A stretch of 64,000 bases of DNA from Myxococcota bacterium (lineage in GTDB: Bacteria; Myxococcota_A; Polyangia; Nannocystales; Nannocystaceae), in assembly GCA_039028615.1 (NCBI GenBank), contig JBCCHT010000008.1, forward strand, positions 160,001-224,000, given 5' to 3'. Each line of letters opens with the position of its first letter. The stretch's first letter is position 1. Position numbers: made by a program. Positions 32,401-50,400 of this stretch are shown here, piece after piece.

Positions 32401-35400
32401 CCAGGGCCGCGGGCAGCAGCAGCCCCAGCGACAGGCGCAGGTACGTCCCGCCACCCACCGAAATCTGCCAGCGCAGCGCGAGGTCGAGGGTCTCCCCCAG
32501 CGTACGCGGGCGCAGCACGATCTGAGCCTGCGCGAGGTTCATGCCGCCCCCGCTTCGGCCTGGGCCGGCCGTGCTCGGCCCGCGAAGCCCAGGTAGCTGA
32601 ACACGAGCACCCACAGCGAGGCCGCGACGCCCCACTTGACGGGGACCGGCACCGAAGACGGCGACCAGAAACCCTCGATCAACGCCGCGATGCCCAGCAT
32701 CAGCGCCGCACCCAAGACCAGGCGCGCCAGCGCGGGCGCATGGCTACGCAGCGAGGCCAACCGGGTGGCCCCGCGGGTCTGGACGAGCGCAAAGCCCATG
32801 CGCAGCCCCGCACCTCCGGCGATGACGATGGCCGTCAGCTCGAATGACCCGTGCCCCATGGCAAAGGTGAGCAGGTTTCGCAGCGCCCCGTCTTCGTGCC
32901 ACAGCCAGCCCAAGGTGGCGCCGAGATAGAGCCCGTTGAGTACCAAGAAGAACGCACTCCCCAAGCCGCCCGCAATGCCGGTCGCGAAACAACGGAAGGC
33001 GATGCCCACGTTGTTGTACACGTAAAAGCCGGTCATCATCGTGTCGCTGCTCTGGCTGCGGCCCTGCTCGAACCCCTCGAGATAGGACTGGGCCGTGGCC
33101 TCGAGCTGCTCGGGGGGCAGCACGGTGGTGGCGAGGCTGGGGTCGAGCACGGCGGCGATGAGCACCACCACCATGGGGATCACGAACAGAGCGCAGGCGA
33201 TGGCCATATAGGCCCAGGACTCGCGCACAGTCCGGGGGAAGTCCTGGGCGATGAGCTCCCAGACCGCCCGGAAGCGATAGGGCTCGGCCCGGTACAGCGC
33301 GCCGTGGGTCCGCACCGCGAGGGCATCGAGATAGGCGATGCGATCCTGGGGAAAGCTGGCCCCGCGCACATGCACGAGATCGGCACAGACCTCTCGGTAC
33401 AGCTGCCCGACGCGAGCGATATCGGCCGGGTCGAGCTTGTGCAGCGGACGATCGGCCACGAGCAAGGCCTCGAGCGCGCTCCACGAGCCCCGCCGCTGCT
33501 CGACGAACGCGTCCGGGTCCGCGGGACGCGTGGTGCGATGCTCCGTGGCACTCACGATTGAACGTCCGTCGCAGCCGCAGAGGCGCCGACCGGCTGGGTC
33601 GCGCGGTGATGGACCAGGGCCAGGAAGCGGCCGGGATCTCGATAGCGAACGCCGAGACGCTCGGCGATGCGCGGGGCGAGCAGCTCGGCCAGCTCTTCCT
33701 CGCGGGCCGGGGCCAGCGTGTTGCGACGGGGCACGAAGCGCTCGAGGGCCCGCCGCTCGTCGGCCTGCAGCGGCACCCGGTGGGGCAGCGTGGCCAGCTC
33801 GTCGGCGGTGGGCGGCACCTCGTCGGCCTGTCCTCGCAGCAGTCGGGCTCGATTTTCGTGGATGACCACCGTGCCCGCGACCATGTCTCCGAGCCGCCGA
33901 AAGCGAGGATCGATGCTGGAGCACACGATGCCCACGCAGCCACCCACGGGCAGCCAGTCCGCCGCCCGCAGCAGATTGCGCAGCACCGAGTCGACAAAGC
34001 CCATGGGGAAGCCGCCCTCTTTGACGGTACGCAGGGCCAGCACGCGCTTGCCCGGGGTCTGGCCGCTCCACATGCTCTCGAGCAACACGTAGTAGCCCCA
34101 CTCGACCACGAAGATCACGATGAGGGCCATGCCCGTGGACTGCTCGTTGAACGCGCTGCTGCCCTCGGCCATCGAGATGAGCACGAGCAGCATGAGCACG
34201 ATGAAGCCGCGAATCAGCCCGTCGATGGCATAGGCGAGACCGCGCCGCCACGGCCCCGCCAGCCGCAGCCGCAGCGTGACGTGCTCGGGGGTCTCGATGC
34301 TGACGGTGGTGTCGAGGGGCTCACGCATGGACAACCGGCGGGCCCGCTACTCGGTGGGCGACCAACCGGCCATCACGACCTTGGTGTTGGCCATGCGGTC
34401 GTGCAAGCAGCGTTGCTCGGAGCCGAAGATCCACAGCACGTTGACCAACGAGATGAGCGGACCCACCGCGGGAATGACCGCCAACAACGAAAAGGGCAGG
34501 TAGCGCAGGGCGAACAGGTGGCCGGCCGAGGGCGGCTCGTTGCTGTTGACGTCGACCATCCGCAGCCCCAACGCCCGCTTGCCCACCGTCTGGCCCGACT
34601 GAAGGAAGTACCACTGCACCGCTGCGAACACGACCAGGCCGATGAGCGAGGTGATGATCGTATTGATGAAGTCCGGCTCCGGGTTGTCGAAGTCCAGCAA
34701 CCCCAAGGCGATGAGGATGGCGAAGTTGGGGATCGTCAGCGCGAAGCCATCGATGATGGCCGCGCCCAAGCGAGAACCACGGCTGGCCAGCGGCGGCTCG
34801 AGGCCATCGCCATGAAAGGACGGCTGGTTCGTTTGATCTTCGACCGGAGCTTGGTAGGGGTTGATATCGTTCATGGTGGGGCTGCCCGTCTACTAGTGCA
34901 CCACCCCCTTCATTTCAGACAAAGCACTCCGAGTTTTCCAAAATGGGACATTCGTTCGGGTCACGTCGGCGGCCCGGCGCCCACCGGACGGCCAGCCGCA
35001 ACGGCTAAAACGGCCCTGGACGCCCCTCTACTGCTTCTGCACGGCGATTGCCGAGGCCCCGCCCAGCACGTGCAGGAACTGGTTGAAGTGGCCGCGCTCG
35101 GAAACGCGAGCCGCCTTGCGCAGCACCTCCTGCACCGATCGCGGCTCCCGACGCTGCAGCCATCGCAGCAGCCACCGCGCCCCACGAGTGTCGGGCAGCT
35201 CGAACGAGTACCCATTGGCCGCGACGATGAGCGCGTCACCGGCCTCCGCTCGCTCGAGCCACAGGTCGGGCTGCGGCGCGATGACGTCGGCGGCGGCGAG
35301 CTTTCGAAACGCCCAGGGTGCCGGCAGCACTCCGCCCGCGGTCCGAACCCGCAGCCAGTGATGCAGCTGATCGCGATGCAACGCACCCGATGCCAAGACC

Positions 35401-47400: not shown

Positions 47401-50400
47401 TCCGCGGATGGATCGCCGACATCGGGCCCCAGGTACGCATGCTTCAGCCGACGCGGCGCCGCGGCGCCGTGCCCGAGCCGACGACACACCTCCAACGCTG
47501 CACCGAGGGCTCCGCCTGCGTCGTGCGAGGCTGGCTGCACGAAAATCCCGTCGAACTCGCCCGAGGCCAACAACCGACCATTGAACGTAGAGTTGTGGGC
47601 GACACCCCCGGCCAAGCACAAGTGACGCTCGCCCGTCGCTTCGCGAAAATGATCGACGATGTGCATGGCGAGGGTCTCGAGGGTGGCTTGAATGGCCGCC
47701 GCGATATTGCGATGTGCCTCGGTGAAGGCCTCGCCCCGATGACGCACATCGGCGAGCACCCCAGCCTTCTGCAGCCGCGTGACCCAGGCATAAAGCGGCG
47801 CGACTTCGTAGGCGCCCTCGGGCTTCAGCTCGTACAGCGACGCGAAGGCCTCGGCGTGCACGGAGGGATCGCCATAGGGTGCCAGCCCCATGACCTTGTA
47901 CTCGTCGAAGCGCCGATAGCCGAGCAGGCAGATGAGGTCGCGATAGAGGTCGCCAAGCGACTGCGCCCCAGTATAGGTCTGCAGGCGCTCGAGCTCGCCG
48001 CCGCCGTGGGCCCGAAACACCATGCCCGAGTTGCCGTCGCCACCACCATCGATGACGACCACCAGCGCGCGCTCGAAGCCGCTGCAGGCGTAGGTGCTAC
48101 GCGCGTGGGCGATGTGGTGATTGACGAAGTGCAGGCGCGCGGACACGTCGACGCCGAACGCATCGAGGAAGGGCTGGGCGGCATAGGTGCGGGCACCGAG
48201 TTCGTCGGCCCCGTTGGCGCGACCGACCATCTCTTGGATGGACTCGAAGTCCCACGTGGGCTTGGACCAGTTGTTGGCGACGGCATCGACCTCGTCGAGC
48301 CCCACGCCCGCGATGTCGAGCACGGCCCGGATGGCACGCTCGGGGAAGTAGTTGCCGTGCTTGACCCGGGTGAGGCGCTCGTCCTCGACCGCGGCGACGA
48401 CATCACCATCGCGCACGACCACCGCGGTGGCGTCGTGAAAGCCATATCCGAGGCGGTTGTCTTGGCCGAGCCGGCGACGACCACCATGAAATCCAAGCAC
48501 GATCATGAAGGTCGAAGTCTACGTCACTTCACCCTCGTGGCCACACGCAAATGGCAGTCTCACAGTCGAGGCAATACTCATTGAATTCGCAAATCATGCC
48601 ATCAGGACAAGCGTGCTCACCATCGCACGAAAGCACGCATCCATTCTCCCACCATCCCGAGTGTGGCCGACCAAAGACCGCACAATCGGGCACGGCGTTG
48701 CCCGTGTCTGCGGCCGGGCAGTGGCTCGGCTCCGAGCACACCGCTCCGCACTGGCCGAGGGCCTCGAAACACTCGGGCGTGGGCTTGTAGCACTCGGCGG
48801 GGCCATCATTGGTGCACGGGCCATAGGGTGTATCCGCGGGGACGACTCCGTCGAAGTCGACGGCGCCGCTTCCGTCGAGTCGTTCACCCGAATCCGACGA
48901 AGCATCACTGTCGGAGTCATGGGAGTCGGTGTCTTCACCGAGGTCGACGGCGACCGGGTCATCGACGGCACAAGCGACCGCACAAAGGAACAATGAACTG
49001 GAGAGCAACCAACGAGACATGACAAACCTCTGGGGGCAGGAGGTGTGGTGAATTGCAGAACGACCTCGCGCGCCGATGAAGGGGGCATCGACGACGGGGA
49101 CCCGCGACGCGCTGCGACCGGGGGCGGGTGCAGACGACGACCGCGATGGCACGATGGCCATGGGCTCGAGCGTGGGGGACGACGCGCCCGGGCACCGCAG
49201 ATGGGCCCGAGCTTGCGCATGATGTGCACGCGGCCGAAGGGCCGCGGGCGGCGGAAGGGTCAGGCCGCGAGCGTCAGACCCGGGCCGGAACCGAAATTGC
49301 CTGAGGAACGGTCAATTCATGCGCGAAAACAGGGATTTGGGTTTTGGTGGGGGACTTGATGGGCACAATGGCCGTGGATCACGACCGAATTCGCTTCTTT
49401 GCTTCCAAATCTAACAAACAACGTTTCAATTCAGCTGGGCTTTCACCCTCTAGTCGATCAGGGGGATCCACCTAATGGCACCCGGGGAGGCCCGGGATTC
49501 ATCGCGCGGGCGCTCCCTCTACCGCGCGGGGGTGAATGCAGCCGAAGCTATGGGGGGACAATGAAATACGGATACGGATGGCTAGCGATGGTTTTGGCAC
49601 TCGCCGCGTGTGACGCGGACACGGATGCCAATGATGATGGCAACGACAGCGGCGCCGAGCAGTGCATGGTCGACGAGCCGCTGGTGGTGGATGCGCTGAG
49701 CGAGAGAAATTGTGTGCCGGCTTCAACTGATTACCAGCCGTTAACCGACGCCGAAAACGACGCCTGGCCCGCCTGTCTCCCCGATGACGGCGCCTATCAC
49801 CTCGTCGACGCCACCCCCAGCTCCATCGCGCGCGTCGAGGCGTTCGAGCAGATCATGGAGGCGCTGGCCGACGACTCGCCGAGCGCCGATGCGTTCACCG
49901 AGGCCCGCACGATCTACTCGATCGAAGAGGGCCTCGAGTCGCGGCTCGTTCGTCGCGAAGACCATCACTACGACCCGGTGCCCGAGGCCGATTGGGTCGA
50001 GGGTGTCGACGCGGACAAGCAGTGCACGGTCGAAGAGAACGTCGCGGCCTACCCCGAGCGCTGCGCGGGACCGGGACGCATCGCGCCGATCCTCAACGAG
50101 GCGTTCGCCGCCGGGCAGACCGGTGATGGCATCGCGGCCGTCAACAAGGCCCAGGTCGAGGCCGCGCTGCTGTGGTTCATCCACCTGTCGGTCTACAAAG
50201 AGGCCAACACCTGCCTGCCCAAGGGCAAGGACTGTGACTCCAGCTGGGCCTACTACACCGGTGGCCACGATCGAAACGGCGGCATCGGTCTGTCGCGCGT
50301 GGTCCAAGGCCACTCCGACCTCGCCCACCAGCGCATCTGGGACGGCTTCACCGCCTTCCGTTGCTGGCGCGAGCTGTACCCCGATGCCACGACCCTCGAG

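Follow-up and report, generated by a model that had tools for sequence, protein, structure and literature searches.

A LanB-lineage gene cluster with four JmjC oxygenases, a B12-radical SAM enzyme and a carbamoyltransferase as the likely source of a heavily tailored ribosomal peptide in a Myxococcota bacterium

Described pathways and layout of the cluster

Class I lanthipeptide clusters combine a NisB/MibB-type LanB with a LanC. In the polytheonamide pathway (PMC9505594), a cyclase-less dehydratase (PoyF) is found together with the cobalamin radical SAM C-methyltransferases PoyB/C and the Fe/2OG hydroxylase PoyI. Biphenomycin (bip) is made from an aromatic/Arg-rich ribosomal core with a B12-radical SAM enzyme, which forms a biaryl bond, and the JmjC hydroxylase BipG (PMC12707348). 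The crocagin pathway, which is myxobacterial, possesses the dioxygenase CgnC and the carbamoyltransferase CgnI (PMC10070186), StdF N-carbamoylates Lys (PMC13174530), and CzlI from curacozole biosynthesis is a non-essential JmjC enzyme that converts Phe to Tyr (PMC11575548).

We analyzed a stretch of 64,000 nt (hereafter the window) from a Myxococcota bacterium, in which a RiPP-type cluster spans positions 35028-48506. All the genes that an earlier note on this DNA had named (the peptide, LanB, the B12-radical SAM enzyme, four JmjC/cupin proteins, two membrane proteins, and a carbamoyltransferase) were recovered in their places by Pfam searches and reading. The junctions, read in sequence, revealed two divergent, tightly packed operons, the one on the minus strand carrying the precursor, B12-radical SAM, JmjC2, and JmjC1 genes, and the one on the plus strand carrying LanB, mem1, mem2 (HTTM/SdpB-like), JmjC3, and JmjC4, with 4-nt overlaps between neighbouring genes of this LanB operon. 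The carbamoyltransferase gene is convergent and adjoins JmjC4. The genome (12.3 Mb) has 10 JmjC_2 matches, and 5 of them fall within 20 kb here, a clustering that exceeds chance. The RiPP cluster is real and rare.

The locus resembles class I lanthipeptide clusters by its full-length two-domain LanB with conserved elimination-domain Arg/His and by a GG-type leader, common to precursors adjoining related LanBs. It differs from them by the absence of LanC on the contig, the single core Cys, a Glu in place of the Thr matching NisB Thr89, and eight additional genes (four JmjC, B12-radical SAM, carbamoyltransferase, and the HTTM-like membrane pair). With the proteusin polytheonamide it shares a dehydratase without cyclase, a B12-radical SAM enzyme, and an Fe/2OG hydroxylase for a linear ribosomal peptide; however, that pathway has no carbamoyltransferase and works with an epimerase, an N-methyltransferase, an NHLP leader, and a LanM-type dehydratase domain, whereas the present locus combines a GG leader with LanB and JmjC enzymes. 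Similarly, bip shares the B12-radical SAM/JmjC pair and the type of core but lacks LanB and also includes an MNIO, an arginase, an HExxH hydroxylase, and a TldD-type protease. Crocagin and StdF are precedents for ribosomal peptides hydroxylated and carbamoylated, but with other oxygenase families, without LanB or radical SAM, and, unlike the Lys target of StdF, the present core has no Lys. Finally, CzlI is a single enzyme, whereas four paralogs, three with an extra C-terminal domain, are present here.

JmjC hydroxylation and carbamoylation, presented in the earlier note as new to lanthipeptide-like biosynthesis, already occur in RiPP pathways through BipG (PMC12707348) and CzlI (PMC11575548), and through CgnI (PMC10070186) and StdF (PMC13174530), respectively, and the linear-peptide logic believed to be undescribed has its counterpart in polytheonamides (PMC9505594). 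The combination of enzymes is new, and every single chemistry type is already known for RiPPs. The best explanation, which we consider likely, is a biosynthetic cluster that descends from the lineage of class I lanthipeptides (LanB) and makes a ribosomal, heavily tailored peptide. The product of this compact cluster of a marine bacterium is most likely a small ribosomal peptide modified by dehydration, several hydroxylations, either methylation or cross-linking, and carbamoylation. Neither a product nor expression data turned up, the source DNA run being the only one retrieved.

Likely precursor peptide, LanB, and the missing LanC

The 56-aa ORF at 39287-39457 on the minus strand, whose sequence reads exactly as previously quoted, is composed of the leader MEKKNKQKKLVVKKKVVTQQTEELDEDQLLEVTGG and the predicted core YYRCSFELTLIGGFTTRFTNA. 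Its ATG is preceded by AGGA 8 nt ahead, and its GC3 is 0.875 vs 0.505 and 0.628 for the remaining spacer ORFs. The leader, which is Lys-rich, acidic, and of GG type, is alignable with 11 precursors adjoining related LanB genes; a search for sequence homologs of the whole peptide returned none, and thus no orthologous precursor. From its sequence, this peptide is most likely the precursor of the cluster, and the assignment, which rested on position and the GG motif, is made firmer by the leader alignment and GC3. The predicted core of 21 residues is Tyr/Phe-rich (YYRCSF and FTTRF), lacks Lys, and contains five Ser/Thr (Ser5, Thr9, Thr15, Thr16, Thr19) and one Cys (Cys4), whereas the other cores of this LanB clade are Cys-rich. 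The leader would recruit LanB via the enzyme's own leader-binding region, and JmjC1, JmjC3, and JmjC4 via an RRE-like domain. Its removal after GG could be carried out by a C39-peptidase transporter encoded elsewhere; C39 peptidase ORFs were located at three sites elsewhere in the genome.

LanB (39660..42797, plus strand) is full-length, with glutamylation and elimination domains (Pfam Lant_dehydr_N 2.4e-149, Lant_dehydr_C 2.5e-55), and matches MibB (2.8e-54), 9g04 (8.9e-49), and NisB (7.3e-28) in the PDB. A motif alignment revealed that Glu97 occupies the position of NisB Thr89, where a Thr is found in 86/86 locus homologs and 145/149 representatives. As Glu replaces this near-invariant Thr, dehydration by the present LanB is not assured. 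In NisB, replacing Thr89 by Ala left no dehydration in vitro and reduced it in vivo, where 5-7 dehydrations were still performed, according to the passages that cite this work in PMC4341554 and PMC7296275. Alternatively, LanB may be impaired or repurposed, so that the peptide receives hydroxyl, methyl, and carbamoyl groups but undergoes no dehydration, with LanB as a leader-binding scaffold or the whole cluster in decay. The rarity of Glu at this position and the in vitro loss in NisB T89A agree with such a scenario, which is nonetheless improbable considering the dehydrations retained by that mutant in vivo, the intact LanB ORF (GC3 0.84), the conservation of elimination-domain Arg and His and of all the other glutamylation/elimination residues checked, and the intact neighbouring genes. 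In the preferred reading, of a dehydrated and further tailored peptide, LanB would glutamylate the five Ser/Thr of the core and then eliminate to leave dehydro residues, provided that the Glu97 variant is active.

LANC_like gave no Pfam match in any window ORF scanned, and a genome-wide search in all six frames located LanC on contigs C14 and C1 only and none on C8, the contig of the cluster, bearing out the claim that the cluster has no LanC. Being "LanB-only" is, however, not unusual, as 12 of 46 well-flanked related LanB loci also have no LanC match; this suggests that LanB without LanC is common in the clade and that cyclase-less use is a regular state there. Considering the missing LanC together with the single Cys, the sequence points to a product that would probably be linear or contain no more than one ring. 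Such a ring would be expected from an ordinary class I lanthipeptide cluster, in which either spontaneous Michael addition or a remote LanC (on C1 or C14) joins Cys4 to a dehydrated Ser/Thr as a (methyl)lanthionine and the other enzymes are decorations. The core indeed offers one Cys and five Ser/Thr, LanC domains are encoded on those two contigs, and same-genus relatives retain LanC beside LanB and JmjC genes. We find this explanation very doubtful, given that C8 is devoid of LanC, that the clade's other cores are Cys-rich, and that cyclase-less LanB looks regular.

JmjC oxygenases, B12-radical SAM enzyme, and carbamoyltransferase

On the minus strand, JmjC1 (35028..36266, with ATG 36266 or GTG 36239 as the likely start in frame 35028-36650; GC3 0.87) has a weak Pfam match to JmjC_2 (6.6e-5) and is 28-31% identical to JmjC genes of LanB clusters L012 and L016. 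JmjC2 (36227..37327, with 37327 as the likely start in frame 36227-37381; Cupin_8 1.5e-16, JmjC_2 8.8e-6) has its ATG 2 nt past the radical SAM stop, and tblastn located its relatives immediately upstream of LanB in L106, L107, and L109. On the plus strand lie JmjC3 (44127..45350, with 44127 as the likely start in frame 43281-45350; JmjC_2 4.8e-18) and JmjC4 (45347..46513; JmjC_2 1.8e-16). The alignment showed that all paralogs keep the HxD...H iron triad and a Lys. JmjC4 is YxbC-like, both in the PDB search (1.1e-26) and in the Foldseek match of its AF2 model (pLDDT 86.7; 7.5e-22). When its C-terminal domain (model pLDDT 93.1) was compared by Foldseek, that of NO66 came up ahead of numerous RRE domains; all these matches are weak, none of those to RRE domains reaching E 1e-3. 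The order of elements in the JmjC C-terminal domain is strand-strand-strand(-strand)/helix-helix-helix. These results suggest an RRE-like winged-helix C-terminal domain shared by JmjC1, JmjC3, and JmjC4 and missing from JmjC2. The four Fe(II)/2OG oxygenases may hydroxylate one side chain each, with Tyr/Phe, Arg, Asn, and Glu as candidates; beta-hydroxylation is our guess for this reaction. A metagenome scan with JmjC yielded matches of just 22-27%. The weakness of the RRE matches and the presence of the same fold in the ribosomal oxygenase NO66 speak against the RRE-like reading of the JmjC domain.

The B12-binding radical SAM enzyme (37329..39083, minus strand; Radical_SAM 9.2e-21, B12-binding 4.9e-9) has CPVNCAFC as its CxxxCxxC motif, and its best match among 400 genomes of the class is only 34% identical. 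Nearest among solved structures are TokK (1.7e-24) and CysS (3.1e-18), and the NCBIfam families KedN5 (7.5e-39) and RiPP C-methyltransferase TIGR03975 (8.1e-26) were both matched below their cut-offs. The enzyme looks C-methyltransferase-like or may be a cross-linker, and we only infer methylation, because the B12-radical SAM enzyme of biphenomycin performs biaryl coupling (PMC12707348). A BipD-like enzyme joining aromatic core residues (YY, F...F) would suit the YYRCSF and FTTRF segments, and BipD belongs to a RiPP pathway that also uses a JmjC enzyme. However, the closest solved or curated relatives, in a comparison that did not include the BipD sequence, are C-methyltransferases, and window scans found no MNIO able to make ortho-tyrosines, so that cross-linking is rather unlikely. 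Methylation of an unactivated carbon would be the preferred role. Taken together, the proposal of a dehydrated, hydroxylated, methylated, and carbamoylated linear peptide is supported in part: it holds for the RiPP-type cluster and its likely precursor, and is weakened for dehydration and methylation.

The carbamoyltransferase (46515..48506, minus strand; Carbam_trans_C 1.8e-65, Carbam_trans_N 2.3e-40) is of the NovN/GdmN/TobZ type, with NovN (1.3e-150), GdmN (8.7e-147), and TobZ (4.6e-82) as best solved relatives and full-length alignment to the first two. Its membership in the cluster rests on adjacency, a single base separating its stop codon from that of JmjC4. Orthologs of both genes (P0007, 91% identity to the carbamoyltransferase, and P0003, 78% to JmjC4) are each reported on a 9,827-nt contig, probably one and the same, and the adjacency appears to be kept in this one close relative. 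It is possible, though we think unlikely, that the enzyme is a mere neighbour acting on another metabolite: its gene is convergent, monocistronic, not co-transcribed with the others, and missing from all 96 related LanB loci, and the family is very large (3,077 proteins at E<=1e-100), its usual substrates being small molecules, as for NovN, GdmN, and TobZ. On the contrary, the one-base spacing and the kept adjacency, albeit in a close relative, the lack of other small-molecule pathway genes flanking it, and the use of carbamoyltransferases in RiPP pathways (PMC10070186, PMC13174530) argue for a role on the peptide, where it would carbamoylate one hydroxyl, new or native. We guess O- rather than N-carbamoylation, the former being more likely because the core has no Lys for a StdF-like reaction.

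Related loci, membrane proteins, and a possible satellite operon

LanB and JmjC genes co-occur in the uncharacterised same-genus loci L012, L016, and L017, whose LanBs belong to the same clade (34-35% identity, tblastn) and which contain both JmjC subfamilies and an equal leader architecture, L017 also having a B12-radical SAM gene. As these relatives have LanB, LanC, arginase, and JmjC (plus sulfotransferase) clusters, the present one varies a theme found across the lineage. They differ in that they have LanC, one to two genes of the arginase family, and cores rich in Cys, by three sulfotransferase genes in L017 (one fused to an Asp/Asn hydroxylase domain), and by the lack of the carbamoyltransferase and the membrane pair. 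Among 80 wider LanB loci, 8 have a JmjC or B12-radical SAM relative nearby. The carbamoyltransferase, mem1, mem2, and the peptide have no homolog in any of the 96 related LanB loci, which speaks against the preferred reading.

Both of the membrane proteins claimed before are present, the first in a corrected frame. Mem1 (42794..43291, plus strand, 165 aa), which shares 4 nt with the end of the LanB gene and has two N-terminal hydrophobic helices, was placed in its frame by a GC3 of 0.88-0.89; it has no Pfam or NCBIfam match, and an Atlas search gave a DUF5819-like lead only. The longest naive ORF (42832-43284) was rejected as a wrong-frame Arg/Pro-rich artefact. Mem2 (43288..44124, plus strand) is an HTTM/SdpB-like polytopic protein with hydrophobic segments, an NCBIfam SdpB match (1e-8) below the cut-off, and HTTM clusters as Atlas feature and structure neighbours. 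It is a candidate for export or maturation, a function in which the pair may assist.

In addition, 7.5 kb upstream of the cluster, a trio on the plus strand (24753..27510) encodes by Pfam a Cupin_8 protein (24753-25517), a sulfotransferase (25522-26334), and a JmjC_2 protein, JmjC0 (26338-27510), possibly a satellite tailoring operon of the peptide pathway. JmjC0 is 37% identical to JmjC4, and in L017 sulfotransferases adjoin the LanB/JmjC cluster.

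Gene content and setting of the cluster

Pfam searches and ORF reading confirmed all the genes that the earlier note had named in the cluster (35028-48506), namely a full-length LanB (39660-42797, +; Lant_dehydr_N 2.4e-149, Lant_dehydr_C 2.5e-55), a B12-binding radical SAM protein (rSAM; 37329-39083, -), four JmjC_2/Cupin_8 oxygenases (JmjC1 to JmjC4), a carbamoyltransferase with both Carbam_trans domains (46515-48506, -) and a 56-aa ORF (39287-39457, -). The gene content and order are established, and the catalytic motifs are intact except at Glu97 of LanB.

Neighboring genes overlap by 4 nt in JmjC3-JmjC4 and in LanB-mem1-mem2, mem1 and mem2 being the membrane protein genes between LanB and JmjC3. 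JmjC3 starts 2 nt past the mem2 stop, the JmjC2 start (ATG 37327) lies 2 bases past the rSAM stop, JmjC1 (start at 36266 or 36239) overlaps the end of JmjC2, and a single base lies between the stop codons of JmjC4 and of the carbamoyltransferase gene. These junctions, as read from the DNA, point to two divergent, translationally coupled operons and one convergent gene. The protein encoded by mem1 (42794-43291, +; GC3 0.89) has two hydrophobic helices at its N-terminus and a DUF5819-like match in Atlas as its single lead; mem2 is SdpB/HTTM-like (NCBIfam 1e-8, under cut-off; Atlas neighbors). Another ORF considered for mem1, the Arg/Pro-rich 42832-43284, was set aside by frame analysis.

On the left, the cluster is bordered by an unrelated MoxR/DUF58/DUF4129/RDD operon and on the right by ORFs without family match. 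The cluster itself encodes no protease or transporter, and three C39-peptidase ORFs are found elsewhere in the genome. The source genome (12.27 Mb in 94 contigs, 96.7% complete; window GC approximately 70%) contains 10 JmjC_2 matches by whole-genome count, 5 of them within 20 kb of the window. The DNA is present in one sequencing run, labelled marine metagenome and probably the source, and no RNA run that contains it is listed.

LanB, its Glu97 and the probable precursor peptide

Among known structures, LanB is closest to MibB (2.8e-54), the full-length enzyme 9g04 (8.9e-49) and NisB (7.3e-28). In the elimination domain, R807, R816, R818, R861 and H1008 show no variation across ten clade members and are kept in 90-93 of the 93 locus hits; we take them to correspond to NisB R786, R826 and H961. 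In the glutamylation domain, LanB has RMTWRCEPFGLF where NisB, MibB and 9g04 have R-x-T-P-F-G. The NisB residues of the glutamylation site are Arg87, Thr89, Asp121 and Asp299 (PMC7296275, PMC4341554), of which the Arg and Asp equivalents are kept in our alignment while the equivalent of Thr89 is Glu97, encoded by GAA at 39948-39950.

We asked how common this residue is in 96 fetched LanB loci (16 from related genomes and 80 further from many phyla). Results showed a Thr at this position in 86 of 86 homologs covering the site, and the same holds for 145 of the 149 best non-self representatives from 1.84 billion proteins, the remaining 4 being one Met and three that the search pattern did not locate. 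Glu97 is the most unexpected single feature of the cluster. With the T89A substitution, NisB lost its dehydration activity in vitro (Garg et al. 2013, cited in both PMC4341554 and PMC7296275); the count in vivo was 7, 6 or 5 dehydrations compared to 8, 7 or 6 (PMC4341554, Table 1 and text). Considering these T89A results, and that Glu97 replaces a Thr of the NisB Thr89 type, dehydration activity of LanB is plausible but not assured. A natural Thr-to-Glu change at a LanB residue defined by mutagenesis also offers a direct way to test the role of this residue.

The claim that LanB stands without a LanC was borne out, the scanned window ORFs giving no LANC_like match and tblastn with three LanC queries finding none in the window; a six-frame search of the genome placed LanC on contigs C14 and C1 only, and none on the window contig. 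Flanks of 5 kb or more on each side were available for 46 LanB loci, of which 34 had a LanC match and 12 had none. This count used three LanC queries with a limit of E<=1e-5 and may have missed divergent cyclases.

Elsewhere in the same genome, contig C1 carries divergent LanB-like ORFs and a LanC-like ORF of lanthipeptide type (253937-256139 and 299960-301912), with a C39-peptidase ORF about 17 kb away, and C14 carries a 1072-aa ORF with a LanC domain (175245-176282).

The 56-aa ORF, MEKKNKQKKLVVKKKVVTQQTEELDEDQLLEVTGG then YYRCSFELTLIGGFTTRFTNA, has a GC3 of 0.875 and a GC2 of 0.286, and an AGGA lies eight bases 5' of its ATG. The spacer around it has 56% GC and contains two other ORFs, with GC3 values of 0.505 and 0.628. 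No homolog besides itself was found among 5.8 billion proteins. Neither Pfam nor NCBIfam matches the peptide, which in these terms lacks a proteusin leader (nitrile-hydratase-like or Nif11-like). Small ORFs beside related LanBs have a common leader plan, made of a Lys run, KL-x-L, a T-V/L-R stretch, an acidic stretch and L-x-x-V-x-GG, and 11 of these peptides, from 10 loci, can be aligned with the window leader, which by this alignment is of the Lys-rich GG type of the clade. At the first GG, hydrophobic residues stand at -4, -7 and -12, which presumably matches the classical spacing rule, and a second GG is found within the core (LIGG/F). The core contains 5 Ser/Thr, 2 Tyr, 3 Phe, 2 Arg and a single Cys, whereas related cores are Cys-rich, with 3-10 Cys each. 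A promoter and terminator scan and RNA folding of the spacer past the peptide gene gave nothing above shuffles (z -0.60).

Candidate tailoring enzymes

The His-x-Asp...His and Lys residues are kept in JmjC1 to JmjC4, in the upstream paralog JmjC0 and in the copies of relatives, with H140, D142, K155 and H215 invariant in alignments of 9 and of 14 sequences. The nearest relative of JmjC4 is B. subtilis YxbC, both in sequence (1.1e-26) and in fold, its model (pLDDT 86.7), of the double-stranded beta-helix kind, matching YxbC in Foldseek (E 7.5e-22, TM 0.62-0.75). A C-terminal domain of about 90 residues is present in JmjC1, JmjC3 and JmjC4 and absent from JmjC2. Folded alone, it is predicted as four strands then three helices (pLDDT 93.1); its top Foldseek match was the NO66 C-terminal domain (E ~1e-3, TM 0.77), followed at E >1e-3 by PbtF-RRE, ThcOx, LynD/TruD, McbB, TbiB1, PqqD, TbtB, TglI, MccB and lasso B1. 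This RRE-like fold agrees with the account, in PMC12710340, of JmjC (PF08007) proteins that can carry such folds and of bacterial members in RiPP-like contexts. Since this fold is also that of a ribosomal oxygenase, it is non-specific evidence; gene context together with these weak matches suggests that the JmjC enzymes may act on the peptide of the cluster. A predicted complex of JmjC4 (with alignment) and the 56-aa peptide scored 0.01 against a mark of 0.32 and bears neither way.

Pfam finds B12-binding and radical SAM domains in rSAM, whose CxxxCxxC motif reads CPVNCAFC. Its closest solved relatives are the cobalamin C-methylases TokK (1.7e-24) and CysS (3.1e-18), and the nearest curated families, KedN5 (133.4 bits, cut-off 700) and TIGR03975, a RiPP C-methyltransferase family (90.7 bits, cut-off 281.85), are both far under their cut-offs. 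C-methylation is a probable role for rSAM; considering that BipD, another B12-rSAM, forms a biaryl bond in a RiPP (PMC12707348), the enzyme may alternatively cross-link the aromatic-rich core. Across 400 genomes of the class, rSAM matches reached 34% identity at most and included no ortholog, and neither this search nor a metagenome contig scan revealed an ortholog of the whole cluster.

The carbamoyltransferase aligns over its full length with characterized O-carbamoyltransferases (NovN residues 1-661 at 1.3e-150; GdmN at 8.7e-147) and belongs to a family of 3,077 proteins at E<=1e-100. Its ortholog P0007 is 91% identical, and the rest of the 120 best matches are at 43-49% identity. The contigs reported for P0007 and for the JmjC4 ortholog P0003 (78%) have the same length, 9,827 nt, which suggests that the carbamoyltransferase-JmjC4 pair stays adjacent in a close relative.

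Related loci, precedents and a possible product

LanB paralogs at 33-44% identity occur in 9 of the 60 related genomes (10 of 61 with the source genome), often several in each. The MAGs with related LanBs include ones named Kofleriaceae, Polyangiaceae, Thermoanaerobaculia and Gemmatimonadota. Two same-genus genomes hold the orthologous loci L012 (G005:C141) and L016 (G003:C82), L012 encoding a precursor, a LanC, two arginase-family proteins, three JmjC proteins and LanB. A further same-genus locus, L017 (G005:C132), encodes a precursor, two LanC, one arginase, LanB, a B12-rSAM, three JmjC proteins, two sulfotransferases, and a fusion of a third one with an Asp/Asn hydroxylase domain. The precursors of these three loci contain Cys and Arg, and the loci share with the window both of its JmjC subfamilies. 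For arginase, tblastn gave no match in the window.

In the 80 further LanB loci, a JmjC or B12-rSAM relative lies nearby in 8, and the carbamoyltransferase, the membrane pair and the peptide are absent from all. In L106 (Nocardia sp., 8820-13144), a leader-like ORF and a 292-aa JmjC2-like ORF (tblastn match of 52 bits; triad read by eye) lie directly upstream of LanB. L109 (Sphaerisporangium dianthi) also has a JmjC2-like gene directly upstream of LanB, with a B12-rSAM and a squalene-cyclase-like protein downstream, and no LanC match was found in either locus within the fetched 23 kb. A Cupin_8-LanB fusion considered for a 1410-aa ORF of L109 was dropped, as Pfam shows no cupin domain in it. 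Searching genome contigs for related loci with LanB alone returned nothing, and metagenome contigs searched with the JmjC4 and P0003 alignment returned JmjC genes at 22-27% identity only.

We also looked 7.5 kb upstream of the cluster, where a two-component system (20910-22265, 23966-24628) precedes a translationally coupled trio, composed of a Cupin_8 gene (24753-25517, +), a sulfotransferase (25522-26334, +; start 25522) and the JmjC_2 gene JmjC0 (26338-27510, +), which is the closest paralog of JmjC4 in the alignment (37% identity). As sulfotransferases occur in L017, this trio may tailor the same peptide, which we regard as a lead only.

Polytheonamides already combine a cyclase-less dehydratase, B12-rSAM methylases and an Fe/2OG hydroxylase, according to PMC9505594. 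In crocagin, the carbamoyltransferase CgnI is described as acting after beta-hydroxylations (PMC10070186), StdF is described for carbamoylation on Lys (PMC13174530), and LanB homologs are reported outside lanthipeptides in pearlins and pyritides (PMC11002830). JmjC enzymes in RiPP pathways include CzlI and BipG, the latter gamma-hydroxylating ornithine in biphenomycin (PMC12707348); a biphenomycin-like set (MNIO DUF692 with its partner, arginase and TldD-type protease) was absent among the window ORFs scanned. The proposal of a RiPP type not yet described therefore stands in part: the main text of open-access papers and bioRxiv yielded no account of this gene combination, nor of the LanB, JmjC, arginase and sulfotransferase theme, but every enzyme type has a RiPP precedent, and for this reason the cluster is not a new principle. 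It is real, rare and worth expressing.

If active, the cluster would combine leader-guided dehydration of Ser/Thr, up to four side-chain hydroxylations, C-methylation or aromatic cross-linking, and O-carbamoylation of a hydroxyl. Export would be helped by the membrane pair, and the leader would be removed after GG by a transporter-peptidase encoded elsewhere. The product would be a short peptide with an unusual set of modifications, in which dehydro residues and at most four hydroxyls are joined by a carbamate and by either C-methyl groups or a cross-link; biocatalysis would moreover gain four JmjC oxygenases directed at peptides. Across the lineage, LanB is paired with JmjC, arginase and sulfotransferase genes, which points to a lanthipeptide-related branch of chemistry, as yet unexplored, in large-genome marine and soil bacteria.

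A bolder alternative, to which we give little credence, is that the Glu97 LanB and the four JmjC enzymes work as a team, beta-hydroxyls being placed on residues other than Ser/Thr (Phe, Tyr, Arg, Asn) and then activated by LanB or the carbamoyltransferase to give dehydro-aromatic or carbamoylated residues. To our knowledge, no lanthipeptide enzyme makes residues of this kind. Were it true, this cluster and the same-genus LanB, JmjC, arginase and sulfotransferase clusters would form a new class of "oxygenase-primed" LanB peptides.

Outside the cluster, an ATP-grasp protein (2771-3988, -), an APH-type phosphotransferase (1981-2769, +) and a DUF3667 protein (1080-2003, -) are grouped at the start of the window, and a 1303-aa ORF (57438-61349, -) fuses an amine-oxidase/FAD domain to a polyprenyl synthetase domain.
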